A stretch of 64,000 nt of DNA from Candidatus Komeilibacteria bacterium (GCA_043801745.1 JAZDLR010000016.1:1535-65534), one strand, 5' to 3'. Shown: positions 3,196 through 62,733, counted from the stretch's first letter. Made by a program: numbers and translations. Notes: generated by a model not told the origin, from the letters alone.

Positions 3196-3831
3196 ATGAA
3201 ATACCTAATTATTGTTATTGTCGTTATTATATTGGCCGCTGGCGGAGTAGCCGGCTGGTATTATTATCGGCCACAACAACCCAGTCCAGTCGTACTACCC
3301 CCGACCGGACAACAAGTATATACTAATTCGTCCTACCATTTTTCGGCAAAATATAATCCGCCCATCATAGCAACCGAAGACAAACAACAAATGCAGACCT
3401 CGGGCTATATTCCCGGCTGTGATCCGGACACTAGTCTGGTTTGTTTTATTTATCCGGCTGATGCTTTTGGTAAAACTAATTTTGGTGGCGCCGGTGTCTC
3501 AGTTTCAGTGCTGGCAAATTTAACCAATGAAACCACTTGTCTGGCCACACAACAAAATGATGGCTTATTAGCCACATCAACAGTTATGAATAATCTTACC
3601 TGGCAAACCTGGAGTTTTAGCGACGCGGCCACCAGTCACCGTAGTAACGGCTATAATTATCGTTCTTGGCAAAACAATCTTTGCTGGCAACTACAAACCA
3701 GAATTAATAGTACTGTCTTTGAGGTTTATGCCCCCGGAATGATTGAACTTTTTACTGCCACCGAGGAAGAAACCGTCAACCAGGCTCTACAAAAAACTAT
3801 TAACAGTTTTCAGCCGCCAAAAAGCAGTTAG
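3196..3831 (+). CDS. secreted/membrane-anchored hypothetical protein
   Basis: N-terminal TM/signal anchor KYLIIVIVVIILAAGGVAGWYYY; extended -10 (tgcTATACT, 3180-3188) seven nt upstream of ATG 3196 suggests a leaderless start inside track ORF 3178..3831. Confidence 0.45.
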   Translation: MKYLIIVIVVIILAAGGVAGWYYYRPQQPSPVVLPPTGQQVYTNSSYHFSAKYNPPIIATEDKQQMQTSGYIPGCDPDTSLVCFIYPADAFGKTNFGGAGVSVSVLANLTNETTCLATQQNDGLLATSTVMNNLTWQTWSFSDAATSHRSNGYNYRSWQNNLCWQLQTRINSTVFEVYAPGMIELFTATEEETVNQALQKTINSFQPPKSS

Positions 3832-6184: not shown

Positions 6185-8413
6185 ATGAATAATAATCTTG
6201 AACAACCAAACATTGAGAATCGGCCACCAGTTGAGGCAAAAAAGGAAATTCCGCAGTCGGTTAAAACCATAAAAAAACTTGCCGCGAAATACCCAGAAAT
6301 GGGCTGGCTCACCGGCGATATTGATGCTACGCCAGAGACGAGTATCTCGGATCAAACCGAGGGCACTATTGGTAAGTATATTTTCCCAAATCTTGACAAA
6401 AAAGATTTGATTGAGTTCGACAGAACCGCAGTCGGGATACTAACTCTCCAGTGGGCGGCAAATGGAGATTATGAAAGTTTTACTGCTTGCCAAAAGGGGC
6501 CGACAAAATTAACGCCGGAGGATTTTACAAAACTTCAAGAATATACAAAATCGATTTTACAAAACCCGGAAGATTTTGAGGCAATGGAAACTTTTATGGT
6601 CATCAACGACCTCGGTAAAATTAAGAGTGTTGTAGAAAATATCGCAGAGAAATCAGGAGTTAGAGATGTTGATCACGATAGAATGCTTCTTGTTGGGTTG
6701 GAGCAACACCCTGATATTTCACCGAGCTTTCAAAAATTATCGCCCCGCCACAAAGAGTTAATACTCAATGGCCTAAAGACAAAATTCAACATTGGACAAT
6801 TTATCCAAGGCGAAAATGTACCCGCGAGCCTTGAGGGGCTAAAAGGTATAGATGAGGAAAGCTTGAAATTCTATCTCTTGCATGCACTTTATGATATCGC
6901 TGGAGCGGCAGGTCACTCTGTACAAAATGGATCAATGGTAATGAACGAGCCAACATACGAAAATTTCCGCTTGGCAATCGACTCACTCGAAAAATTGGGT
7001 GAGGGGCAAACTACTGACGAAGCGTATGACGCGTATCTTGCCCAGAAAGCGGAAAAATTTGGTTTCGATATATCAGTTCAGGCGGATCGAGCCACTACAC
7101 GAATCTGTTGTATGCTTAGAACTTCTAAAGTGGGGGAAGCGCAGGAGGTTTTGCGGGTGTTTTCAGAACTGCCGCAAAATACTCGCGCGATACTCGAGAA
7201 TGACCTGAACATGCGAGGAACTAATGACGGTATCGCAACGCTGATTTACTATGCTCCTGCATTTCTTGCAAATCTTCAAAAAAAATTTAGTGAGAGCGGG
7301 GACCCAAATTCTTCTAAAAAAGCACTCGCGCTTGGTTTGGGTACTTTTGCCAGAGTATTTCAAGAGGCGCACATCGCAAATAAAGGAAGGGTAGGGAACG
7401 GTGTATATACTGTTATGGCGTCTCCACTTGCGAAAGTAGCTGCTGAAAACCCCGCTAAATTATTGACACAGGATATAAATCTAAAAACTATTGGTAATGA
7501 TGCGGAAATTGAGCTCACTGATGTTCCAGTAGTTGATAAGGATAAATTTCAAAAAATTGAAAGCTTGACAGAAATTCCCGGTAAGAAAATAGTTGTGGTG
7601 GGAATTGGCGGCGGGTCGGATTGCGTACAAGCAGCATTGCTTGCAGAGTTACTTAAAAAATCAGAAAAAGAATGTCCTTGTGTTATTTCAGTTCGGACAG
7701 AAAAAACAGGATCACAGGGTGCGGGCGGAAAAGTTGGAGAGAAAAGAACAGTAGAAAATCATGGCGGGGAAATTAAAAAGGGTGTTTATCTGATTACGCC
7801 AAAAACTACGGGGTCTGGTAGATTTTTGGAAAATATACCAACGAGTGATATCCCTGTATATTTAATTATCGAACAAGATGGCATTGGCTTGTCGGAACAA
7901 ATAAATTCTGTGTTAGAACAGGTCGGCGGCGTAGATACAGTTGTTGCAGTTGATACTGGTGGTGATGCTTTGTACTCTACAACTGGTCACGATGAAACAA
8001 AAGCAACGCCAGATCAGGATTTGCGAAGCCTTCAAGCGATCAGCAATCTTTCTGGAGTACAAAAAATAAGCTGTGAAATTGCTGTCGGGATAGACACACC
8101 GCCGAATGGTGAGAGTGTATTACTTGACGCAGAGGCAAAACACTACGAGCCAACGCCAGAGGAAGCGACCATGATTTTAGAAAAATATCGGGAGTGGCAA
8201 ATGGACGGTTCAAATGAAGCACGTTTTGGTAAGACACCTCTTGCTTGGCAAGAAGCACTACAAAACCATTTTGGTTTTCAAGAAATAAATTTGCCTAAAA
8301 GAGTAGTACTTGATAAAAAGAATCCGTGGAAACCCTTTGTGCATGTGCAACCAAGCACAAAAGGGATGTTCTTTATGGATGTTGAAAAACATTTGAAAAG
8401 TATTGGTAAGTGA
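6185..8413 (+). CDS. hypothetical 742-aa protein (orphan; C-terminal GIGGGSD ... DTGGD nucleotide-binding-like domain)
   Basis: Long ORF with different codon flavour (A/purine-rich) than neighbours; located exactly between the 49-bp direct repeats. Confidence 0.55.
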   Translation: MNNNLEQPNIENRPPVEAKKEIPQSVKTIKKLAAKYPEMGWLTGDIDATPETSISDQTEGTIGKYIFPNLDKKDLIEFDRTAVGILTLQWAANGDYESFTACQKGPTKLTPEDFTKLQEYTKSILQNPEDFEAMETFMVINDLGKIKSVVENIAEKSGVRDVDHDRMLLVGLEQHPDISPSFQKLSPRHKELILNGLKTKFNIGQFIQGENVPASLEGLKGIDEESLKFYLLHALYDIAGAAGHSVQNGSMVMNEPTYENFRLAIDSLEKLGEGQTTDEAYDAYLAQKAEKFGFDISVQADRATTRICCMLRTSKVGEAQEVLRVFSELPQNTRAILENDLNMRGTNDGIATLIYYAPAFLANLQKKFSESGDPNSSKKALALGLGTFARVFQEAHIANKGRVGNGVYTVMASPLAKVAAENPAKLLTQDINLKTIGNDAEIELTDVPVVDKDKFQKIESLTEIPGKKIVVVGIGGGSDCVQAALLAELLKKSEKECPCVISVRTEKTGSQGAGGKVGEKRTVENHGGEIKKGVYLITPKTTGSGRFLENIPTSDIPVYLIIEQDGIGLSEQINSVLEQVGGVDTVVAVDTGGDALYSTTGHDETKATPDQDLRSLQAISNLSGVQKISCEIAVGIDTPPNGESVLLDAEAKHYEPTPEEATMILEKYREWQMDGSNEARFGKTPLAWQEALQNHFGFQEINLPKRVVLDKKNPWKPFVHVQPSTKGMFFMDVEKHLKSIGK

Positions 8414-8502
8414 TGCCGCTGACGAAAAAACAGTCCGTCCGAGCGAGGACATGGCGAAAGGGGCGCGGGGAGAATTCCGCCATGCCCGAACGGATGAAAT
8501 TG

Positions 8503-8551
8503 TCGCCTCGCTGAGCGAGAGCGAAGCGGGCCTAGGTCCACCATTTCAGAT
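8503..8551. repeat. 49-bp direct repeat, copy 2
   Basis: Perfect copy of 6089-6137. Confidence 0.9.
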
Positions 8552-8581
8552 ATAAAATAATAGCTTTGACTATATAATATT

Positions 8582-10273
8582 GTGTCTGCGCTATCCCTAG
8601 AAACGATTCAGATTATTGCCTGGTCAAAAGTACTGTTATTTTTGGCCGTTATTGTTGCCTTGTTAATTGTCCGCTTTAAAAATAAACCCTGGGCCTGGAG
8701 CTTATTTGCCAGTATCACTGTCACTGCCAGCTACTTAATTATTTCCTGGCCGCTACAGAAAATGTGGTGGGGTAATAATGGCGATGAAATTTTCATTATC
8801 AGTTTCTTTACCCAGGCCCTAAAGTCTAATCCCTTTCAAGACTACTACTACCTAGGGTTACCGGCTTTCTATCCGCCGCTATATTTTCAAGTCATTGGTC
8901 TGGTTTCTCGGCTCTGGGCAGCTAATGCTATTAGCGCGGCCAAATTTGGAACGGCTCTCACTTTTTTCCTGTGGTTTAGCGGAACCTATCTGGGATTACG
9001 TCTGTGCCGGGGCAAACAATCAGAAAAAAGTTCCAGTGAAACTCTGACTCCTTGGCTCTGGTTCACAATACCATTGCTTTTTTTCTTTCTGGTTGATTTC
9101 AACGACTTGATACTTAAGCCCTACGAAACTTTTCCGGCCTTGCTGTCGGTTTTTTGGTTGGGTTTATTATGGCTATCACTTAATAAAAACCGCTGGTCAA
9201 TTAAGGAATATTTATTTTTTGGTATTTCTGGAGGCATCCTATTCTTAACCTACTATTTTTGGTGGTTGATATTAGTACCAGCACTAATAGGTCTGGCGTT
9301 AACTCATTCTCAACGTCTTATTAAATTCCTGCGAATAATTATAGTCGGCTTTATTACCTTTATTATCTCCGGTATATATCTTGTCCCCCTATTTTTGTCT
9401 TACAAATCCGGCATGGAAAATTGGCAAGCTCTTTTCTTTGTTCCGCAAGATTTTTCTACCTTTCTGCCCTTCGTCAACCTGTCTATCAAAACTCCTCTGC
9501 TAATTGCCGGTTTACTCGGCCTTATTATTTATTGCCGCCGGCCCTTTGTCCGAGCCAATTTGGCCATTTTAATTACCTGTTATTTATATCAAATAGTCAG
9601 CTTAGTATTATTTCTGGCCGGCGGCCATCCGTTTCAAGCCGCCAAACCCTTCCTTTTCCTGGGAACAGCCACTCTGACAGTTGGCTGCGCTTATTCACTT
9701 AGCGGACTCTGGAACCACTACGTTACTCCTTTAACCAGCGGCCGCCGGCAAATAATAAGCTTGGCACTAATCGTACTATCACTACCATTTTGGCCCATGA
9801 CTACCTTCATAGATGACGTAGTTGTCAGAAATCAGATTGAAAAGGACTTGAAGGCGCCATCGGCCTATTATTTGGCCAGCCATATTCAGCAAGCTGTTCC
9901 TGATTATCAAAATAAAATCTGGCTCAGTAGTGGTATCCCGGAAATTAACGCCTATTTACCGCTGCATTATTTTATTGCGCACAATCCTCACTTCAGTCAC
10001 CCGGCAGCCAAATACTCTGAGCGGGAGAAAGTTCTTAAAGAGTTAGTCTCGGCGACTGCAGCCAACTTTACGGCACTGGTCCGCGCGTCCGGGATCAACG
10101 CTTTATTACTTTATAAAACCGCCAATAGCGATTCTTATCCTTTATTCCTCTGGGCCGATAACTATCCTAATGGCGGCCTAGAGCGAGAATTACAAATTTC
10201 CAAAGTTCTGATTGATAGTCTGCACTGGAGAACTGTATACGAAGACAGCGAATGGCAAGTCATTATTCCCTAA
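8582..10273 (+). CDS. GT-C-type polytopic membrane protein (putative membrane glycosyltransferase, PMT/ArnT/YfhO-like)
   Basis: >10 TM helices followed by a soluble C-terminal domain; GTG start 3 nt after a TATAAT box (possibly leaderless). Confidence 0.45.
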   Translation: MSALSLETIQIIAWSKVLLFLAVIVALLIVRFKNKPWAWSLFASITVTASYLIISWPLQKMWWGNNGDEIFIISFFTQALKSNPFQDYYYLGLPAFYPPLYFQVIGLVSRLWAANAISAAKFGTALTFFLWFSGTYLGLRLCRGKQSEKSSSETLTPWLWFTIPLLFFFLVDFNDLILKPYETFPALLSVFWLGLLWLSLNKNRWSIKEYLFFGISGGILFLTYYFWWLILVPALIGLALTHSQRLIKFLRIIIVGFITFIISGIYLVPLFLSYKSGMENWQALFFVPQDFSTFLPFVNLSIKTPLLIAGLLGLIIYCRRPFVRANLAILITCYLYQIVSLVLFLAGGHPFQAAKPFLFLGTATLTVGCAYSLSGLWNHYVTPLTSGRRQIISLALIVLSLPFWPMTTFIDDVVVRNQIEKDLKAPSAYYLASHIQQAVPDYQNKIWLSSGIPEINAYLPLHYFIAHNPHFSHPAAKYSEREKVLKELVSATAANFTALVRASGINALLLYKTANSDSYPLFLWADNYPNGGLERELQISKVLIDSLHWRTVYEDSEWQVIIP

Positions 10274-11817
10274 TCATTGCTAAAATTCGGAAATTTTGTT
10301 GGGACAACCGATTTTTTTTAATTTTGGTTGTTTTTCTGGTTGTTATGACCGCTGCCACCTATTCACATTATCTCTACAATTGGGATGCCGGACAATTTGC
10401 TCTTGGCGCCAAACGCTTTTCTTTATCAGAACATCAACCACATCCACCCGGGTATTGGTTGTTTACTGAAACTATTAAATCTTTTAATCTTTTTTTAAGC
10501 GACGGCAACCTATCAATGATTCTGATCAATCTAGTGGCTAGTATGGCCGCGATTTTCTTCTTTTACCGGACAACCATGATGCTGACCGGCAAGCGTCTAC
10601 TGGCTTTTTGGTTAACCCTACTGTTACTAACCAACCAGGTTTTTTGGTTTTACCGTTCTGTTGCCAGCACCTACCTAATAGAAATATTAACTGTTTGCTT
10701 TTTACTCTATACATCAATCCGAATGCAAAAAGGTAGCCGCTCATTACTGCCATACAGCTGTCTGGCCGTGGCGCTTCTGGCCGGTTTTAGGCCTTCAGTT
10801 ATTTTGATCGCCGCCCCGTTATTACTCTACCAATTAATTTTGTCTCCACATAAAGTCTCCGCCATAATAAAAAGCTTGACCGGAGTGCTACTGGGATTAG
10901 CTCTTTGGCTACCCGCCTTAGCTGCCGCGGCCGGTGGCTATCAAGCCTTATATCACTTTATTATTGGTCAATTTATTATAGCCGAAACCTCGACAAGAGC
11001 GATTATTATCAGCCATGACATTTTTTTAGTGGCAACTATCCTGTACACAACCTTTGTACCTCTGATAATAGGCCTGCTGTTTTATAAAAAAATCTACAAC
11101 AGTATTCGCTCCTTCCATCTCTGGTTTATTGTAGCGACACTGGTCTGGCAAATTAGTATCTATCTGATACTACACTTTGATGAAGTTGGTTATATTCTCG
11201 GCCTCATACCTTTATCCTATATTCTTATTTTGCCAGCCTTAGAACATCTAGCTAGCAAGCGTAATCAACTGGTAATTTCCTGCCTAGTGATCTCGGGTCT
11301 GCAGTTAATACTATTTTTTACCGGCATTCCTCTGACCATTCAACCAAAAGTTCAAGCCCTAAACTACCAGGATATCAGCCGTCATGACCAACGGATACAA
11401 AGTCAACTAGCCTTTATTTCCAAATATGACCCGGCAACGACCTTAGTTATTATTACCCGCGGTCAATATCTAACTGCCGACAATGTGATAGCCTCCTACC
11501 CTTATAATGACATACGGCTAATGAGCTATTATTTGCCACAATACAAAATCTATGACCTACTAGGTGTTAAAAATAAATTTTATGTGGCGTCCAATTATAC
11601 CTACAGCGAAATTAACAATGAGACAGTGACCACTATGGCGCCGGCAATCAAACAAATTATTATTGTGGCTGACTATATTCATCCTACCTATCTGCCGCTT
11701 AATTTACAGTGGCGCAGTCTCTATCCGTCATTTAATATTAAAAATGTGTATTTCGCCGACTTAGGAGACCAAACAAACTTCATCTATAGCGGGCAAATCT
11801 TTAGTAAGAATCCCTGA
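10252..11817 (+). CDS. GT-C-type polytopic membrane protein (putative glycosyltransferase)
   Basis: Multi-TM N-terminal region plus C-terminal soluble domain; overlaps upstream gene by 22 nt. Confidence 0.45.
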   Translation: MASHYSLIIAKIRKFCWDNRFFLILVVFLVVMTAATYSHYLYNWDAGQFALGAKRFSLSEHQPHPPGYWLFTETIKSFNLFLSDGNLSMILINLVASMAAIFFFYRTTMMLTGKRLLAFWLTLLLLTNQVFWFYRSVASTYLIEILTVCFLLYTSIRMQKGSRSLLPYSCLAVALLAGFRPSVILIAAPLLLYQLILSPHKVSAIIKSLTGVLLGLALWLPALAAAAGGYQALYHFIIGQFIIAETSTRAIIISHDIFLVATILYTTFVPLIIGLLFYKKIYNSIRSFHLWFIVATLVWQISIYLILHFDEVGYILGLIPLSYILILPALEHLASKRNQLVISCLVISGLQLILFFTGIPLTIQPKVQALNYQDISRHDQRIQSQLAFISKYDPATTLVIITRGQYLTADNVIASYPYNDIRLMSYYLPQYKIYDLLGVKNKFYVASNYTYSEINNETVTTMAPAIKQIIIVADYIHPTYLPLNLQWRSLYPSFNIKNVYFADLGDQTNFIYSGQIFSKNP

Positions 11818-11890
11818 TGGTTATATTGCTTTTTCTCAGCTTTCATACTAGTATGCTCTTGCCTTAGTTCTATTTTTATCTTCTGATTAG

Positions 11891-37654: not shown

Positions 37655-38680
37655 TTATTTATCTCCTAATTCTTGCTTCAATAAATCTACCCAAGGTATC
37701 GCCGTGGCATCTAACTGCTCTTTACCGGCCAATTTAAGAGTTAGAGCCGAACTCCACCAGAGCATTTTCAGTCCCTGCTCTAAACCATTGCCAATAAACG
37801 ACTGCTTTAAAACCTTTATGCCTAAGCGTTGCAATATTTTTTCTGTCAGACGGTAACGTTTCTTGGTCCTGACATAATAATCTGATGATTCCAGCATTAC
37901 CGCTACCCATTTCTTACTCTGACTGCCTAGATTAGACAAACCTTCTAATAAATGGTGATTCAATTCAGGTAGAGCAAAGTAAGCAGCAAAAAGTTTAGCA
38001 GTCTCATTTAGTTGGTTACTCATAATATGGGCCGCACCAGTCAAATGTTCAGAGGCAATAATCAGACAATTTTTATTCAACATTTGCCGCGCTGGCGCCG
38101 TTAATAATCCCCGGCCGCCTCTCATTGTCATAGCAGCGCGCCGCAATTCTGCCAAGTCCAGCTGCAATATACCGGCGCTTTTCAAACTAAGGGCAAAGGC
38201 TGCCAGCATATAGCCCAAACCCAGGCGCGGCTGTCCGCTGGGGTTAAATTTAGTGGTAAAAATAAAGTGCGGTATTTTATCCGCTGCGGCCGCCTCAGCC
38301 AATTGGCCGCCACTGGTAATTACCAAAGCCGATAAACGTCTTTTTCTGGCTTCTTGAAAACAACCTAGGGCCTCTTCAGTCGCCCCGGAATAACTAGCGA
38401 TTATCACCAGACTATCGGCCGACGCCAGACCAGGCAACTGATAATTATTAACTATAATAACCGGCACCTTTAACTGGCGCCAATAAATATACCGCAGTAG
38501 GTCAGCGGCCAGAGCCGATCCACCCATACCACAAACAATGACCGAGTTATATTTCTTCCTAGCCAACAGTCTTTTCCTGGGCCAATGATCCAGAGTCCAG
38601 ATAATTTGCTCTGGCAACTGCTCGACCGAAGCAGCCACCAAAGAATTGTGCTGAGACCGTTGTTGTTTGAGGGACAACAT
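37655..38680 (-). CDS. bifunctional phosphoglucose/phosphomannose isomerase-like SIS-domain protein
   Basis: SIS motif VIVCGMGGSALAADLL; archaeal/bacterial PGI-PMI-like length and organisation. Confidence 0.65.
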   Translation of the reverse strand: MLSLKQQRSQHNSLVAASVEQLPEQIIWTLDHWPRKRLLARKKYNSVIVCGMGGSALAADLLRYIYWRQLKVPVIIVNNYQLPGLASADSLVIIASYSGATEEALGCFQEARKRRLSALVITSGGQLAEAAAADKIPHFIFTTKFNPSGQPRLGLGYMLAAFALSLKSAGILQLDLAELRRAAMTMRGGRGLLTAPARQMLNKNCLIIASEHLTGAAHIMSNQLNETAKLFAAYFALPELNHHLLEGLSNLGSQSKKWVAVMLESSDYYVRTKKRYRLTEKILQRLGIKVLKQSFIGNGLEQGLKMLWWSSALTLKLAGKEQLDATAIPWVDLLKQELGDK

Positions 38681-38816: not shown

Positions 38817-38848
38817 CCCCGCCCAGAGGGCGGTCGCCCCGTGGGCGA
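38817..38848. repeat. double-hairpin repeat element, copy A (CCGCCC-AGA-GGGCGG / TCGCCC-CGT-GGGCGA)
   Basis: Second copy at 51755-51784 has identical stems and different loops. Confidence 0.7.
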
Positions 38849-48530: not shown

Positions 48531-51362
48531 ATGCCCATTTCTCCGCTTCGCCCAGCCTTTCAAACCAAACCCCTAGGATCCACTAATTTCCCTCGGTCTC
48601 CCCGACACCACCGAGGTGGTTTTTGGCGTATCTTTTGGCAACGTATTATACCAATAATTATTCTCTTAACTCTAGTTGGTGGAATTTTTGTGGTTGGTGC
48701 TTTTGTTTGGTATTCGCATGATTTACCAGACCCCAATAAACTAATTGACCGTAGCGTAGCCCAGAGCACAAAAATTTATGATCGCACTGGAGAGCATTTG
48801 CTTTATGAAATCCATGGCACTCAAAGGCGCACCCTAGTTAATCTTGATCAGATTCCTAAATATGCGGTTGAGGCAACTATTGCCATTGAGGACAAAACCT
48901 TTTATGAACACCGGGGCTACAATGTGGCGCGTATTATCAAATCATTATTAATAAATGTTTTAACTGGCCAAAAAGCTCAGGGCGGCTCTACGCTAACACA
49001 ACAATTGGTCAAGAACGCTATCTTAACCACCGAAAAGGCGTATTCCCGAAAAATTAAAGAGTTGGTGCTTTCTTACCGCATAGAACAAAAATTCACCAAG
49101 GATGAAATCTTAAAATTATACTTCAACGAAATCCCTTACGGTTCCACGGCCTATGGTATCGAATCGGCTAGTGGTATCTATTTTGGCAAGTCGGCTAAAG
49201 ATTTAACCCTGGCCGAAGCGGCCGTATTAGCCGCTCTACCTCAAGCTCCGAGCTTCTACTCTCCCTATGGCTCACATAAAGACCAGCTGCTAGAGCGTCA
49301 GCGTTTGGTTTTAAAATTAATGCGGGAGCAGGGATATATTACGGCTGATCAGGAGCGGGCCGCCGCTTCAGAACAGGTTGTTTTTAAAACTAAACGTGAA
49401 GATATTACTGCGCCACACTTTGTCTTTATAGTTAAGGCCGAGCTGGCAGAAAAATACGGCGACCGGATGGTGGAACAGGGTGGTTTAAAAATCACCACAA
49501 CCCTTGATTGGGAGAAACAACAATTAGCCGATGAAACCGTGCAGCAAATTGGCTCTCAGCTGCAAACCAAGTATGGAGCCAACAATGCCAGCTTAGTAAC
49601 AATCGATGTGGTCAGTGGTGATGTCTTGGCTTTGGTTGGATCACGGGATTACTTCGACGACTCTATTGATGGCCAAGTTAACGTAGCGATCCAACCGCGT
49701 CAACCAGGAAGCTCACTCAAGCCTTTTGTTTACGCTCAATTATTTACCAAGGGATTTGGCCCGTCTTCATTACTATTTGACCTAGTAACCTCTTTTGGTT
49801 CTAATGGTGCTGGCGGCGAATACAAACCCCATAATTACGACGGTAAAGAGTATGGTCCGGTTTCTATCCGCCAAGCTTTAGCTGGTTCTCTTAACATTCC
49901 AGCTGTTAAAGCTCTTTACTTGGCTGACCCAGTTAAAGTAATCGAACTGTTAAAAAACTTTGGTTACACCAGCTTTACCGACGCTTCCCGCTATGGCCTG
50001 TCCTTGGTTTTGGGCGGCGGAGAAGTGGAGCTGATAGAGCATACCAATGGCTACGCTGCCCTGGCGCGCGAAGGGGTCTATCAAAAATATTATGATGTTT
50101 TAAAAGTTGAAGATTCAACCGGTCGGGTGTTAGAAGAGAAAGAACAACCCGAACAAAAAAGAATTCTGGAAGCGCAAGTCGTCCGCGAAATTACCAACAT
50201 TCTGTCTGACAATGATGCCCGCGCCTATATTTTTGGTGTGAATAACAATTTAACCCTTGGCGGACGTCCAGTAGCAGCTAAATCCGGAACTACCAACGAC
50301 TATAAAGACTCTTGGCTTATGGGCTATACGCCGCAGTTAGTCACCGGTGTCTGGGTGGGTAATAATAATAATAAGCCCATGAACCAGGCTACTGGTGCCA
50401 ACGCTGCCGGTCCTATCTGGCAAAGCTACATGGCTAAAATTCTAGCCGCTTATCCGGCTGTCGGCTTCACGGCTCCTGAAACAACCGTTTGCGATAAAAT
50501 AATGATTTGCGGCCAATTGGCGCGCGAAGTAACGATTCCTGTTGACCGCGTAACTGGGCAACCGGCCACAGCGGCCACTCCACCGGAAAACATCGAACAG
50601 CGTACCGTTAAAGAGGTTCATGATATCTTACAATACGCAGACAAAAATGATCCGCTCAACCCCTCATATCCGGCCCATCCAGAACAAGATCCTCAGTATG
50701 AAAACTGGGAGGCGCCGGTGCGTAAGTGGGCCCAAACTAATGGTTACGTTAGTAGTCTGCCCAACCAGGGAGTTAATGACCGAATTAAAATCAGTTGGGT
50801 AGAGCCCAGTAATAATGACCAGCTCTCGGGACAGTCAATTCATTTGGCTGTAGGCGCCGACGCTCCTGATGGAATAAGCCGCGCGGATTATTATTTGAAT
50901 AATCAATTTTTAGGCAGCTCATCCAAGCCGCCGTTTGATATTACAGTTAGTCAACAAGCTTCTTGGCCTTCCGGCACTCAATCGTTACGCGCTATTGTCT
51001 ATGATTCTATCGGGGCCAGTAACTCTGCTTCTTTAACGGTTAATATTAGCCAGATGATTATTACTGCGCCAAAAATACAATGGACCAGTCCGCAAAATTA
51101 TACAGTCTATACCACTGAAACTTGGCCCAAGACCATTTCCGCCACACTGGATTCAATCAGCACAGTGGCCAAAATAGATTTCTACTACGTCTTTGGTGAC
51201 CAGACTAATTTTGCCGGCGTTATTGACAAACCCACCTCACCAGTAATTAGTATTCCGTTAAAACAGAATGGCCCCAAGGGAAACTATAAATTCTATTTAA
51301 TTACTACTGACAGCGCTGGCGGAGTACATACCAGCGACAGTATTTCGGCTACTCTTCAATAA
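48531..51362 (+). CDS. class A penicillin-binding protein (transglycosylase/transpeptidase, PBP1A-like)
   Basis: GT51 motifs (EDKTFYEHRG, GGSTLTQQL), transpeptidase SxxK/SxN/SGTT; start at ATG 48531, 9 nt after a TATAAT box (track ORF starts 48489). Confidence 0.85.
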   Translation: MPISPLRPAFQTKPLGSTNFPRSPRHHRGGFWRIFWQRIIPIIILLTLVGGIFVVGAFVWYSHDLPDPNKLIDRSVAQSTKIYDRTGEHLLYEIHGTQRRTLVNLDQIPKYAVEATIAIEDKTFYEHRGYNVARIIKSLLINVLTGQKAQGGSTLTQQLVKNAILTTEKAYSRKIKELVLSYRIEQKFTKDEILKLYFNEIPYGSTAYGIESASGIYFGKSAKDLTLAEAAVLAALPQAPSFYSPYGSHKDQLLERQRLVLKLMREQGYITADQERAAASEQVVFKTKREDITAPHFVFIVKAELAEKYGDRMVEQGGLKITTTLDWEKQQLADETVQQIGSQLQTKYGANNASLVTIDVVSGDVLALVGSRDYFDDSIDGQVNVAIQPRQPGSSLKPFVYAQLFTKGFGPSSLLFDLVTSFGSNGAGGEYKPHNYDGKEYGPVSIRQALAGSLNIPAVKALYLADPVKVIELLKNFGYTSFTDASRYGLSLVLGGGEVELIEHTNGYAALAREGVYQKYYDVLKVEDSTGRVLEEKEQPEQKRILEAQVVREITNILSDNDARAYIFGVNNNLTLGGRPVAAKSGTTNDYKDSWLMGYTPQLVTGVWVGNNNNKPMNQATGANAAGPIWQSYMAKILAAYPAVGFTAPETTVCDKIMICGQLAREVTIPVDRVTGQPATAATPPENIEQRTVKEVHDILQYADKNDPLNPSYPAHPEQDPQYENWEAPVRKWAQTNGYVSSLPNQGVNDRIKISWVEPSNNDQLSGQSIHLAVGADAPDGISRADYYLNNQFLGSSSKPPFDITVSQQASWPSGTQSLRAIVYDSIGASNSASLTVNISQMIITAPKIQWTSPQNYTVYTTETWPKTISATLDSISTVAKIDFYYVFGDQTNFAGVIDKPTSPVISIPLKQNGPKGNYKFYLITTDSAGGVHTSDSISATLQ

Positions 51363-51384
51363 ATTATTACCTGGAAAAGAAAAA

Positions 51385-51545
51385 GCCCCCGCGAGTAATT
51401 GCGAGGGCCAGGTTGGTGGAACCGGCCGGATTTGCCGCGCCCCGCTGCCTAGCGTCAGCTATGGCGGCCGGGGAACCGACGATCTCCCTGGGGTCAACCA
51501 GAGCGCCTTAAACACTTGGCCACGGTTCCGATATCACGGAAATAA
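51385..51545 (-). other. GC-rich segment co-transcribed downstream of tRNAs, ending in an intrinsic terminator (candidate small ncRNA or processed trailer)
   Basis: Minus-strand terminator CCCUCGC-AAUUACU-CGCGGGGG plus U5 near 51385-51410; about 60% GC, no convincing ORF. Confidence 0.3.
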
Positions 51546-51547
51546 GT

Positions 51548-51652
51548 TGGAGCGGGTGATGGGATTCGAACCCACGACGTCTTCCCGAGGTAAGAGGCAG
51601 ATCACACATACCCCGCCAGAAGAAAGCGCCCTACCTCTGGGCCACACCCGCT
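51548..51652 (-). tRNA. tRNA with ~29-nt insertion in anticodon loop (anticodon CUG/Gln-like if insertion removed at 37/38)
   Basis: Acceptor GCGGGTG/CACCCGC, D-arm GCCC-AGAGGTA-GGGC, T-arm GTGGG-TTCGAAT-CCCAT, CCA encoded; anticodon stem CTTTC/GGAAG interrupted by hairpin GGGGTA...TACCTC. Confidence 0.5.
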
Positions 51653-51666
51653 CTAAAAGAACGAAT

Positions 51667-51743
51667 TGGAGTAGCCAACCGGACTCGAACCGGCAACCTC
51701 CTCACCGAAGGGGTGAGCCGCTCTACCTTTGAGCTATGGCAAC
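51667..51743 (-). tRNA. tRNA-like gene with atypical anticodon loop (CCCUUCG; anticodon unresolved, CUU/UUC-like)
   Basis: Acceptor GTTGCCA/TGGCTAC (one mismatch), D-arm GCTC-AAAGGTA-GAGC, anticodon stem CTCAC/GTGAG, T-arm GCCGG-TTCGAGT-CCGGT, CCA encoded. Confidence 0.45.
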
Positions 51744-51754
51744 ATCTTGTCTTG

Positions 51755-51784
51755 CCGCCCACCGGGCGGTCGCCCTGTGGGCGA
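51755..51784. repeat. double-hairpin repeat element, copy B (CCGCCC-ACC-GGGCGG / TCGCCC-TGT-GGGCGA)
   Basis: Same stems as 38817-38848; sits inside a 40-bp segment flanked by 13-bp direct repeats (51732-51744 and 51785-51797, agctatggcaaca). Confidence 0.7.
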
Positions 51785-52029
51785 AGCTATGGCAACAAAA
51801 AATATCTCTGAAGCCTACCCGCCTATGGTGGGCAGCGACACGAATATAGATATTAATACAACTCAAAATCAGTGTCAATTACTATTACTTGACATTATCT
51901 TAATAATATGATAAAAAATAATGTTCTTTGAAATCATGGGCCTGTTATGGCCTTGTATATATAGAACTCCATACGGAGGTTGCCGACAACGCGTCGGCAT
52001 AGACACAAAACCGCCATGAACCGAGGAGG

Positions 52030-52428
52030 ATGAGTATCGTGGCTAGCAAAACCCTGTATGGAAAGGTGGGGGTGACGCGGCCTAACGAGCCAACACTAAT
52101 AGTGACCACCTTTCGCCTTCACATTGGTGAGGTAGTGAAAAGGCTAGGTCTCTACCCCTCTCCTAACGGGAACGAGTATGTCGTCGACCAACTGCGCGAT
52201 GGCTTGGAGATTAGGATGCCTTCGTCGGCTATTCTTTTTCTCTGCACCATACCAACTCCCTGCGTTATCTATGAGCGTGAGATTTATCTAGGAAAGGATC
52301 ACGGGGAGTCGGGCCCATTCCTCTTGAAAGAGGGCGCACGTTTCATGCGAGGCAACACGAACGACCTCTTCGTGGAAGCTCTTTCATCCTTTTTGCAAGC
52401 TACCACCCCGGACATCAATAACGCTTAG
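52030..52428 (+). CDS. hypothetical protein (high-GC island ORF1; GTG start)
   Basis: GAGGAGG RBS 7 nt upstream; GC about 58-60%. Confidence 0.5.
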   Translation: MSIVASKTLYGKVGVTRPNEPTLIVTTFRLHIGEVVKRLGLYPSPNGNEYVVDQLRDGLEIRMPSSAILFLCTIPTPCVIYEREIYLGKDHGESGPFLLKEGARFMRGNTNDLFVEALSSFLQATTPDINNA

Positions 52429-52477
52429 CGGGCCGAAACCTACCCACCCAAACACAGACATACGACTGGAGGATCTT

Positions 52478-52717
52478 ATGATTTTCGTAGAATTCACCCC
52501 CAAAGAGACTTCTCCCATGAGGCGCAAATACTTTTTCGTCGGCGCCAGTTTGGAGGACGTCCTCGCGGACACAAGCGGTGGTACGGAATTTGGATTCGTC
52601 ACCTTCGCCTCTCACCGCGAGATTTCCGAGGAAGAAGCTCGCAGCCTGAAGCTGGGCTACCTGGACAAGGGCATTCAGGCCGTGAAGAACGGCTGCAAGA
52701 GCTACATGCTGGACTAG
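52478..52717 (+). CDS. hypothetical protein (high-GC island ORF2)
   Basis: GGAGGA RBS; 79 aa acidic protein. Confidence 0.45.
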   Translation: MIFVEFTPKETSPMRRKYFFVGASLEDVLADTSGGTEFGFVTFASHREISEEEARSLKLGYLDKGIQAVKNGCKSYMLD

Positions 52718-52778
52718 GCTTTTAGCGCGCAGACAACTGCGCACACGATCACTAGACCCCCACAGGAGGTAGCAACAC

Positions 52779-53438
52779 ATGAAACGGATCATTCTGATCG
52801 CTCTGCTTGCCTGTCTGTTCGTGATCCCGACGTTCACCACCGTCTGCCTGGCTGCAGATCAGCCGGCAGTCAACACCACCTCCACCGGCCTCACCCCCGA
52901 GGACATCGCGCAGCTGCAGAAGAACGTGACGGCGTTTGCGAAGGTCCTGGGTTTGGCTGACACCACCACCGCCAAGTCCGGGACTCGGCTGTCAATGGCC
53001 GATGTGGCTGACAAGTTCCTGGAGTACTCCAAGGCGGCCATTCTGGCGACTGTCGGTACCATCGAGAAGGTTGCTCCACATGTTTGGGCTGTGTTGGTAC
53101 GACAGCAATACGCCAAAGCTTTCTCTTCGTTGGCAGCCCCAGTCTTCATCTTCATCTTCCTGTTGCTCTTTCGACTGTGGGTCGTGAGGAAGAGGAAGAG
53201 CGTCACTGCGACAGAAAACGACGTACTCGTTGTAGTGAACGGCAACCTCGATCCAGTCGAGATCAAACTGACCGGTTTGGGTCAGTGGGCCAACGTCCTG
53301 GCGCTTCTTGGAATGGTCACTGCAGCCCTGTTCGTGGCAGCACGGATTGCGCCGGCAGTCAGACTCCTGGTCAACCCCGAGTACTATGCGCTCCGCGACC
53401 TCATTCTCCTGCTCCTGAACAAGGGCCAGGGGATGTAG
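52779..53438 (+). CDS. hypothetical membrane/secreted protein (high-GC island ORF3)
   Basis: GGAGG RBS; signal peptide then Thr-rich region and two TM helices. Confidence 0.5.
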   Translation: MKRIILIALLACLFVIPTFTTVCLAADQPAVNTTSTGLTPEDIAQLQKNVTAFAKVLGLADTTTAKSGTRLSMADVADKFLEYSKAAILATVGTIEKVAPHVWAVLVRQQYAKAFSSLAAPVFIFIFLLLFRLWVVRKRKSVTATENDVLVVVNGNLDPVEIKLTGLGQWANVLALLGMVTAALFVAARIAPAVRLLVNPEYYALRDLILLLLNKGQGM

Positions 53439-53468
53439 GTCCTCAACATCCACCACGGACAACAACAA

Positions 53469-53502
53469 ACGCCGGTCGCGCTCTGCGGCCGGCGTCTATT
53501 TT
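53469..53502 (+). terminator. intrinsic terminator closing the high-GC cassette (ACGCCGG ... CCGGCGU plus U-run)
   Basis: GC-rich stem followed by TCTATTTT. Confidence 0.6.
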
Positions 53503-62264: not shown

Positions 62265-62573
62265 AAGAGAACGCCACGGTCGAATGATCGTGGCGTTTTG
62301 ACGCAAGGTCCGCACAAGCCGCAGATGGGCAAGATGGGCGAAACCCGCAGATGATATAACCTTATTGGCTTTTTGCCGGCACCATAGGGGGCTATCCCCC
62401 ACAGGTACCGCGTCACCCCCTTTATCGAAGTATCGGGGGCTTGCTCGCCCACTGGGCGACGGCAGGGTTGGGGCACATTGGCCCCGTTAGCCGAGGAGAC
62501 ACTCGTCGGACCGCTGAGCTCTAGCGGCCAAACAGGCGTTTCCTTTCTAAACCCTCGATCCCTGGGCGTCCCC
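62265..62573 (-). other. GC-rich structured non-coding region; tentative tmRNA-like element
   Basis: Minus strand begins GGGGACGCCCAGGGAUCGAGGG (resembles tmRNA 5' GGGGCUGAUUCUGGAUUCGACGGG); 3' side has hairpin CCACG-AUCAUUCGAC-CGUGG then CGUUCUC that can pair with the 5' end; no tag ORF identified. Confidence 0.2.
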
Positions 62574-62733
62574 TGGGATCAATGTACTAATAACCTTTTA
62601 TCATATATATAAAATTGTGTCAACCCCGAAAACCGAAGTAAATTAAAATAATGGCTAGTTTTGGCCAATTTAGGTGCTAATCATACTATGTTTGAGTGTT
62701 CGGGTCCCAAGTTGCAAGCCACAAGTCCCCTCT

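Follow-up and report, generated by a model that had tools for sequence, protein, structure and literature searches.

The locus analyzed here raises the question of what is made from a bacterial gene that folds as a tRNA and has surplus sequence in its anticodon loop: an intron-bearing, permuted, or class II tRNA, a disrupted tRNA, or an RNA that does not decode. The gene lies on the minus strand of a 64,000-nucleotide stretch of DNA from Candidatus Komeilibacteria bacterium (referred to below as the window), where its neighbors are bacterial housekeeping genes (TyrRS, PBP1A, DnaN, and DnaA). The PBP1A sequence is 100% identical to an NCBI protein assigned to this taxon, which belongs to the Patescibacteria (CPR). 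The sequence-only reading of the window had described a Gln-like tRNA with the anticodon CUG and had left it undecided among three options, in which the tRNA has an unusual intron, is permuted, or is disrupted. We favor another answer with moderate confidence, namely that the gene belongs to a set of selected, non-decoding tRNA mimics, and that its insert is an unspliced, lineage-specific expansion.

A tRNA-shaped gene with surplus sequence in the anticodon loop

The gene, referred to as unit 2 (W-1), is a 104-nt cloverleaf of the tRNA-Gly type with an encoded CCA, located at 51548–51651 (−); the coordinates given previously, 51548–51652, were correct except for 51652, which is one base too many. 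The acceptor stem (GCGGGTG/CACCCGC) is followed by U73 and the encoded CCA, and the other parts are a D arm (GCCC-AGAGGTA-GGGC), an anticodon stem (CTTTC/GGAAG), a 5-nt variable loop (ACGTC), and a T arm (GTGGG-TTCGAAT-CCCAT). Pairing is complete in all four stems. The Rfam tRNA model (RF00005), whose gathering score is 29, matched the gene at 51.7 bits, with E = 3e-8 when the window is taken as a whole. The tRNA shape is well beyond chance, and the earlier description of a minus-strand gene with canonical acceptor, D, and T arms and an encoded CCA was borne out. The free energy of the cloverleaf-constrained fold was −37.9 kcal/mol, compared with an MFE of −41.0.

The covariance model placed 33 inserted nucleotides in unit 2, all within the anticodon loop. 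Instead of a 7-nt loop with U33 and a 3-nt anticodon, 36 nt (51586–51621, −) separate the two strands of the anticodon stem. On the minus strand, this segment consists of TTCTGGC (51621–51615), the helix arm GGGGTA (51614–51609), a 16-nt loop (51608–51593), the second helix arm TACCTC (51592–51587), and a final G (51586). The order of stem, TTCTGG, hairpin, and G reported previously is therefore right, with the correction that one C had been dropped from TTCTGGC. The predicted fold of the arm is a 5-bp stem, a 7 × 1 internal loop, a helix of 6–7 bp, and a 16-nt loop; an alternative register folds as 5 bp, a 2-nt bulge, and 7 bp.

With its default settings, ARAGORN missed unit 2, and with introns allowed, a check that the sequence-only reading had proposed, it called tRNA-Gln(ctg) with a 29-nt intron. 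The earlier parse is thus reproducible, and its estimate of about 29 extra nucleotides in the anticodon loop agrees with this call. It had placed the insert at the canonical 37/38 position, whereas in the ARAGORN parse the insert follows loop position 38; the choice of boundaries is arbitrary. When 29 nt are removed, the remaining loop is UUCUGGC or UUCUGGG, with U33 and a purine at position 37. In the same mode, ARAGORN also called a tRNA-Ala(ggc) with a 91-nt intron at 37734–37916 (−); this call falls within the coding sequence of a phosphoglucose isomerase/SIS-domain protein (37655–38680), and we discarded it as a false positive.

Tests for introns, permutation, and a long variable arm

A class II tRNA, the alternative against which the sequence-only reading had guarded, was rejected because the covariance model puts the surplus nucleotides inside the anticodon loop, and the variable loop has only 5 nt; on this point the reading stands. 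A permuted or split tRNA is ruled out: the arms follow the normal 5′-to-3′ order on one strand, and model positions 1–71 are matched throughout.

[quoted passage not shown] Searching for this strict form only, we found it in 0 of the 2114 suboptimal folds of the unit 2 anticodon arm within 6 kcal/mol, and in none of the suboptimal folds of two other arms with large inserts, the anticodon arm of L023-C and the T arm of W-3 (both described below). Group I introns require a catalytic core much longer than 29–36 nt. The insert is far below this size, and an Rfam search of 51000–52300 at E values up to 10 gave no match to Intron_gpI or any other ribozyme or intron family, so a group I intron was rejected. 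Hammerhead-like motifs in the inserts were dismissed on inspection by eye. No splicing endonuclease or RtcB was present among the window ORFs of at least 150 aa, which is a weak test covering 64 kb of the genome. Our literature search for short bacterial tRNA introns or CPR tRNA-like arrays returned only work on group I introns. With no strict BHB, no group I core, and a Gly-type body, the unusual-intron reading is unsupported. The disrupted tRNA is the nearest of the three options to the evidence. However, the gene is not simply broken, and this option is not the whole story because unit 2 belongs to a conserved operon of tRNA-shaped genes.

Amino-acid identity of unit 2

In bacteria, G1-C72, C2-G71, G3-C70, and U73 form the glycine acceptor set, and tRNA-Gln normally has U1-A72 and G73. 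Unit 2 has exactly G1-C72, C2-G71, G3-C70, and U73. We compared its two flanks with 534 tRNAs of all isotypes, including 22 tRNA-Gln. The flanks were 80% identical to tRNA-Gly(UCC) and at most 65% identical to every other isotype, and the best of the 22 tRNA-Gln reached less than 60%. Similarly, the pattern of the 5′ half had 51 matches in viral contigs, of which 47 were tRNA-Gly. Judged from these comparisons, the body of unit 2 is of the tRNA-Gly type, not Gln. We therefore rejected tRNA-Gln on the basis of the Gly-type body, with its G1-C72 and U73, and the low identity to the best tRNA-Gln; of the earlier Gln-like assignment, the CUG parse survives as an ARAGORN call, and the identity of the body does not. 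Because the predicted anticodon CUG would sit on a tRNA-Gly-type body with U73, with which it disagrees, a spliced unit 2 would be an incoherent chimera.

A predicted operon of three tRNA-shaped genes

Unit 2 is flanked on the same strand by two other tRNA-shaped units. A predicted sigma-70-type promoter (TTGACA-17 nt-TAATAT, 10 of 12 consensus matches) at 51850–51878 (−) and a predicted intrinsic terminator (a 9-bp stem followed by TTTTTCTTTT) at 51384–51409 (−) enclose approximately 460 nt containing a leader and the three units. The leader (51744–51843, −) is structured (RNAfold z = −5.7). A 13-nt direct repeat, TGTTGCCATAGCT, occurs at 51785–51797 and 51732–51744, the second copy forming the start of unit 1, and the two copies flank a twin GC hairpin (about 51753–51784) of a dispersed, REP-like type.

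Unit 1 (W-2; 51667–51743, −) is 77 nt long and scored 46.4 bits with the Rfam tRNA model, with two extra loop nucleotides. Its anticodon arm can pair in two ways, one giving 6 bp and a loop of 5 nt and the other 4 bp and a loop of 9 nt. The acceptor stem has one U-U mismatch, and U73 and CCA are encoded. The closest relative is L023-A, with 81% identity in the core. Unit 1 is probably not a decoding tRNA. ARAGORN forces it to tRNA-Lys(ctt), and standard annotation would tally it as a tRNA.

Unit 3 (W-3; 51414–51529, −) is 116 nt long and was seen by neither Rfam nor ARAGORN. It has a perfect 7-bp acceptor stem (GGAACCG/CGGTTCC), A73, CCA, and an anticodon loop of 6 or 8 nt. Its T arm contains approximately 39 nt of extra sequence (51434–51472, −), which takes up about 44 alignment columns relative to L001 and L226 (see below), is flanked by the 7-nt direct repeat CCGGCCG (read from the sequence), and contains GCCATAGCT...GCGGCAA, resembling the leader element. 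Only when 38–40 nt were deleted from the T arm did ARAGORN report unit 3, as tRNA-??? with a 6-nt loop. Since none of the three operon units (0/3) has a 7-nt anticodon loop, none of them would be able to decode on the ribosome.

The operon lies between the PBP1A gene and dnaN/dnaA, and the same place and unit order are found in the closest relatives. The PBP1A–dnaN interval varies among relatives, with an ABC transporter, a GIY-YIG gene, and membrane proteins, as in a variable island beside replication origin genes. In the window, the region upstream of the operon (52000–53500) has a G+C content of 0.51, compared with about 0.44, and its ORFs mostly have no family match. One encodes a 219-aa membrane protein (52779–53438) with a weak match to a phage membrane protein (phrog_1486, E = 5e-12), the sole homologue of which is in L001. 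No partner protein was conserved beside the arrays.

Related arrays and purifying selection

Relatives were found with PBP1A as the anchor. Syntenic arrays occurred only in a subclade with PBP1A identities of at least 60% (L001, L002, L023, and L161), plus L226, i.e., in a small clade of 5–6 array-carrying genomes. In L163–L168, with PBP1A identities of 52–58%, no array was present at the syntenic PBP1A–dnaN site, which limits arrays in this position to a small subclade. The contigs of L169, L170, and L228 are short and end before the array. A metagenome scan with PBP1A yielded only relatives with identities of 50% or less over the full protein, none of which had odd tRNA-like genes. Genes of this kind were found in the window and in L001, L002, L023, L161, L165, L167, L005, and L226. 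A regular-expression scan for tRNA-like genes contributed no gene that Rfam and ARAGORN had not already supplied, most of its matches being false positives.

The arrays of the window, L001, and L226 are collinear and align unit for unit. In L001 and L023, as in the window, the array is enclosed by a predicted promoter and terminator. We examined 14 units. The D stems are fully paired in all 14, as are the T stems; the T loop is the canonical 7-nt TTCRANY in 13 of 14, and the variable loop has 5 nt in 13 of 14. The anticodon loops have 3, 4, 6, 6, 6, 6, 7, 7, 8, 8, 9, 9, 36, and 38 nt. Some units have acceptor mismatches or lack CCA, and acceptor identity varies among units. L023-C is the only other unit with a large anticodon-loop insert; the sequence of this insert is unrelated to that of W-1, and ARAGORN forced the gene to Leu gag.

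The L001 counterpart of unit 2 has the same Gly-type acceptor and D loop, with 74% core identity, and lacks the insert; its loop is the 6-nt AGGUAA. This suggests that the gene was already non-decoding before the insert arrived. In L226, unit 2 is effectively replaced by a unit with an Ala-type acceptor (G3:U70/A73) and a 7-nt loop, and the middle position of the array is, on the present alignments, a variable cassette.

To assess selection, we compared L001 with L226 only. At the 4-fold degenerate sites of the adjacent ABC-transporter gene, the two are 48.5% identical, compared with 97.5% for unit 1, 94% for unit 3, and 66% for unit 2. The outer units are thus far more identical than neutral sites, indicating strong purifying selection and not decaying pseudogenes. 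Neutral sites are saturated between the window and L001 (32–40% identity), so the same test is inapplicable to the window's own units. A selected fold together with lost decoding, the combination expected of a non-decoding tRNA-like RNA, is what these sequences indicate, selection being seen for units 1 and 3 of L001/L226. Unit 2, which is the least conserved, could be the least functional.

Insertions and the twin GC hairpin

Compared with L001 and L226, the window operon has three extra segments in approximately 460 nt: the leader is longer by about 53 nt, the unit 2 anticodon loop by about 30 nt, and the T-like arm of unit 3 by about 44 nt. From this alignment, the 29–36-nt insert of unit 2 is judged to be derived and specific to the lineage of the window. 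No second copy of it with up to 3 mismatches was found in the window, BLAST gave no match in any of the fetched loci, and no targets or copies of the insert or its 16-nt loop were found in the window and loci. Given that no second copy is present in the 64 kb or the fetched loci, the insert is not demonstrably a REP/MITE-type element.

The twin GC hairpin of the leader does occur in multiple copies, as a repeated element would, whereas the W-1 insert does not. It is a 30-nt element, CCGCCCnnnGGGCGG followed by TCGCCCnnnGGGCGA, with copies at 51753–51784 and 38819–38848 in the window, at 3268–3297 and 12621–12650 in L164, and at 6885–6914 in L003; a single hairpin of this type is located at 62446–62458 in the window. 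It is absent from the leader of L001. The copies are about 87–90% identical across genomes in which PBP1A is only about 50% identical. Two of them lie roughly 15–20 nt upstream of start codons (yebC and thioredoxin). The element may be mobile, of the REP-like type, or it may be conserved as an operator or as an RNA motif.

L004 (20888–20996) and L003 (19708–19722) show one site in its filled and in its empty state, respectively. The L004 insert, approximately 91 nt long and starting with twin hairpins, follows position 12 of a tRNA-Gly(GCC) gene and is flanked by a 14-nt direct repeat. The window leader (51732–51797) has the same arrangement at the same tRNA position, 12/13, with its 13-nt repeat. 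The two cases suggest that the hairpin insertion is site-specific for the tRNA D arm and leaves an intact gene copy downstream. Repeated small inserts, in the leader, unit 3, and L004, indicate that the tRNA and tRNA-like genes of this group have been remodeled repeatedly, and the position-12/13 hairpin insertion with its 13–14-nt duplication offers a handle on this process.

Proposed mechanism and rival explanations

Under the explanation that we favor, unit 2 would be a tRNA-Gly-derived RNA in which a 36-nt segment has taken the place of the anticodon loop and lengthens the arm by a helix of 6–7 bp capped by a 16-nt loop. As the middle of three co-transcribed tRNA-shaped genes under one predicted promoter and terminator, it would be released from the operon transcript in the manner of an ordinary tRNA, with RNase P cutting at the 5′ side of each tRNA-like unit and trimming producing the 3′ side. 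The insert would be kept in the mature RNA as an expansion of the arm and would not be spliced. The products would accumulate as stable RNAs with the L shape of a tRNA, and the conserved upper half of that fold (the acceptor stem, the T arm, and the elbow of the D and T loops) would let them serve as mimics, decoys, or possibly aminoacyl carriers outside translation. The adjacent PBP1A gene had also prompted the idea of Gly/Ala carriers for cell-wall cross-bridges, which stays speculative and was set aside because the window has no Fem/MurM-type gene and the acceptor identity of the units is not conserved.

The same data might be read as decay. Unit 2 would then be a dead pseudogene, left when a small hairpin inserted into a redundant copy of tRNA-Gly, and the operon a relic of a tRNA operon. 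Three extra segments in approximately 460 nt relative to L001 and L226 would fit this, as would the filled and empty sites of L004/L003, where the ~91-nt insert in tRNA-Gly(GCC) shares position 12/13 with the window leader, and the tRNA-Gly duplicate of L005, whose T arm is replaced by a GC hairpin. Moreover, unit 2 is the least conserved unit, and several units have acceptor mismatches or lack CCA. However, in the 14 units every D and T stem and almost every T loop is intact, with the changes clustered in the anticodon loop, and the outer units are 94–97% identical when neutral sites are 48% identical (L001/L226), neither of which is expected of decay. The consensus promoters and terminators are kept (window, L001, and L023), the genomes are small and gene-dense, and the W-1 insert is not a repeated element in our data. 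We consider this explanation unlikely.

The remaining two possibilities both involve cutting of the RNA. If unit 2 contained a new bacterial short tRNA intron, a novel enzyme or ribozyme would excise 29 nt and join the two halves into a functional tRNA, and this might perhaps extend to the T-arm and D-loop inserts of sister genes. Once ARAGORN has taken out 29 nt, the loop does have 7 nt, U33, and a purine in position 37, and tRNA-shaped genes of the group carry 30–45-nt inserts in the D, anticodon, and T loops, which are like the positions used by archaeal non-canonical introns (20/21, 56/57, and 59/60; PMC4090602), in a phylum that is unusually rich in group I tRNA introns (PMC13011429). Nevertheless, neither a BHB nor a group I core was detected, no splicing endonuclease or RtcB occurs among the window ORFs (64 kb only), and the product would join a CUG anticodon to a tRNA-Gly acceptor and U73. 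The aligned genes of L001 and L226 lack the insert, the L001 copy still having a non-canonical 6-nt loop; W-2 and W-3 are non-canonical even without their inserts, and L023-C gives an unrelated, forced anticodon (Leu gag). We regard such an intron as very unlikely. It is just as doubtful that the 30–45-nt hairpin inserts in the L165 D loop, the W-1 and L023-C anticodon loops, and the W-3 T arm are new short mobile bacterial tRNA introns that are removed independently of a BHB by a novel activity, as a bacterial counterpart of the transposing introns of Thermoproteales. Alternatively, unit 2 might hold an intervening sequence that is cut and not religated. As with rRNA intervening sequences, an RNase specific for double strands would cleave the extended helix, which has about 12 bp, and the acceptor stem would keep the two half-molecules together. 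Insertions in rRNA occur in CPR bacteria, among others, and some of them are cut out with no joining of the ends; in addition, one register of the arm folds as 5 bp, a 2-nt bulge, and 7 bp. This helix is, however, short for RNase III, it offers no conservation to test, and decoding would not be restored either; of all the explanations considered, we give this one the lowest probability.

If the units are indeed non-decoding tRNA mimics, purifying selection would be maintaining, in an ultra-small CPR lineage, an operon that is expressed and encodes tRNA look-alikes without a decoding loop, and this operon holds a fast-changing middle cassette. The function of such mimics, as a decoy, a regulator, or a non-ribosomal carrier, would not have been described previously. 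There would also be a practical consequence, in that intron-aware tRNA finders would label these genes tRNA-Gln, tRNA-Lys, or tRNA-Leu, and mislabeled tRNA-shaped genes distort the tRNA sets of CPR bacteria and inferences of codon reassignment.

Comparison with known systems

Unit 2 resembles the genes with archaeal and eukaryal BHB introns in having a short (tens of nucleotides), hairpin-containing insert in the anticodon loop, and the inserts of its sister genes resemble archaeal non-canonical introns in their D- and T-loop positions (PMC4090602). The lineage-specific gain of the insert also recalls intron transposition in Thermoproteales. Unlike in those systems, the host is bacterial, the near-optimal folds contain no strict BHB, the 64-kb window contains no endonuclease or ligase, and removal of the insert leaves an incoherent tRNA, a Gly body with CUG. 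Patescibacteria have an unusual wealth of group I tRNA introns (PMC13011429), which occur in the same phylum as the unit 2 insert, likewise lie in the anticodon loop, and also cause standard finders to miss the gene. In contrast to these, the insert has 29–36 nt and no Rfam intron match.

Like unit 2, the pseudo-tRNA tRNA-Other of Bacillus cereus is a chromosomal tRNA-shaped gene. It does not work in translation, and physiological effects have nevertheless been reported for it (PMC3399842). It is a single gene beside a genomic island, with an ordinary loop size, whereas the window has three such genes in one operon, with insertions in their loops and anticodon loops that are all abnormal. The tRNA-like domain of tmRNA and the Y RNA YrlA (PMC4201824) use an acceptor, T arm, and elbow without anticodon function, as is proposed here. 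tmRNA differs in needing G3:U70 and a tag reading frame, and ARAGORN found no tmRNA. The tRNA-like module of YrlA is part of a larger RNA beside the Ro60 gene, and the Rfam YrlA model gave a chance-level match only (15 bits, E = 7).

REP/MITE-like palindromic elements, e.g., the Rickettsia palindromic elements, insert into genes. The twin hairpin of the leader is similar to them as a dispersed repeat, with the insertion footprint of L004 at tRNA position 12/13, and the W-1 insert is dissimilar in having no other copy in the 64 kb or the fetched loci. By analogy, unit 2 would work most like pseudo-tRNAs and tRNA-like modules (tRNA-Other, the tmRNA domain, and YrlA), from which it is set apart by a selected multi-gene operon, systematically abnormal anticodon loops, and loop insertions.

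Other tRNA-shaped genes and minor observations

The middle array unit of L226 (51–126, +), from a genome closely related to L001, has an alanine-type acceptor with G3:U70 and A73, a T loop UUUGAAU, and a 7-nt loop, CUUUCAG, with the anticodon UUC for glutamate codons. If it were charged and used, Glu would be mistranslated as Ala; more likely, it is another non-decoding mimic.

Single odd tRNA-shaped genes were also observed, and those of L165 and L167 are isolated outside the PBP1A–dnaN site. In L165 (2753–2860, +), the gene has an Ala-type acceptor, a GC-hairpin insert of approximately 38 nt in the D loop, and the loop UUAAAAA. In L167, a tRNA-shaped gene at 8327–8401 (+) has a 7-bp anticodon stem and a 6-nt loop, and a second structured element at 8450–8585 (+) contains GCCCTAGCT...GCGGCAA, common to the window leader and the unit 3 insert. 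L005 has, at 11746–11819 (+), a near-copy of tRNA-Gly(GCC) just upstream of the real gene, with which it is probably co-transcribed; its anticodon is GCU, and a GC hairpin with a 6-bp stem and a 3-nt loop replaces the T arm.

Several of the MAG records used (L001, L002, L018, L023, and others) are titled "uncultured Gammaproteobacteria bacterium" and belong to Patescibacteria/Komeilibacteria by gene content and synteny, so these titles look like a taxonomic mislabel.

Finally, a GC-rich intergenic stretch of 311 nt in the window (62285–62595, −) separates yidC from a diacylglycerol-kinase gene and is a candidate structured RNA of no known family. Its RNAfold z is −3.1, it has no Rfam match at E values up to 1, and upstream of it, on the minus strand, TTGACA/TATGAT resembles a promoter by eye.
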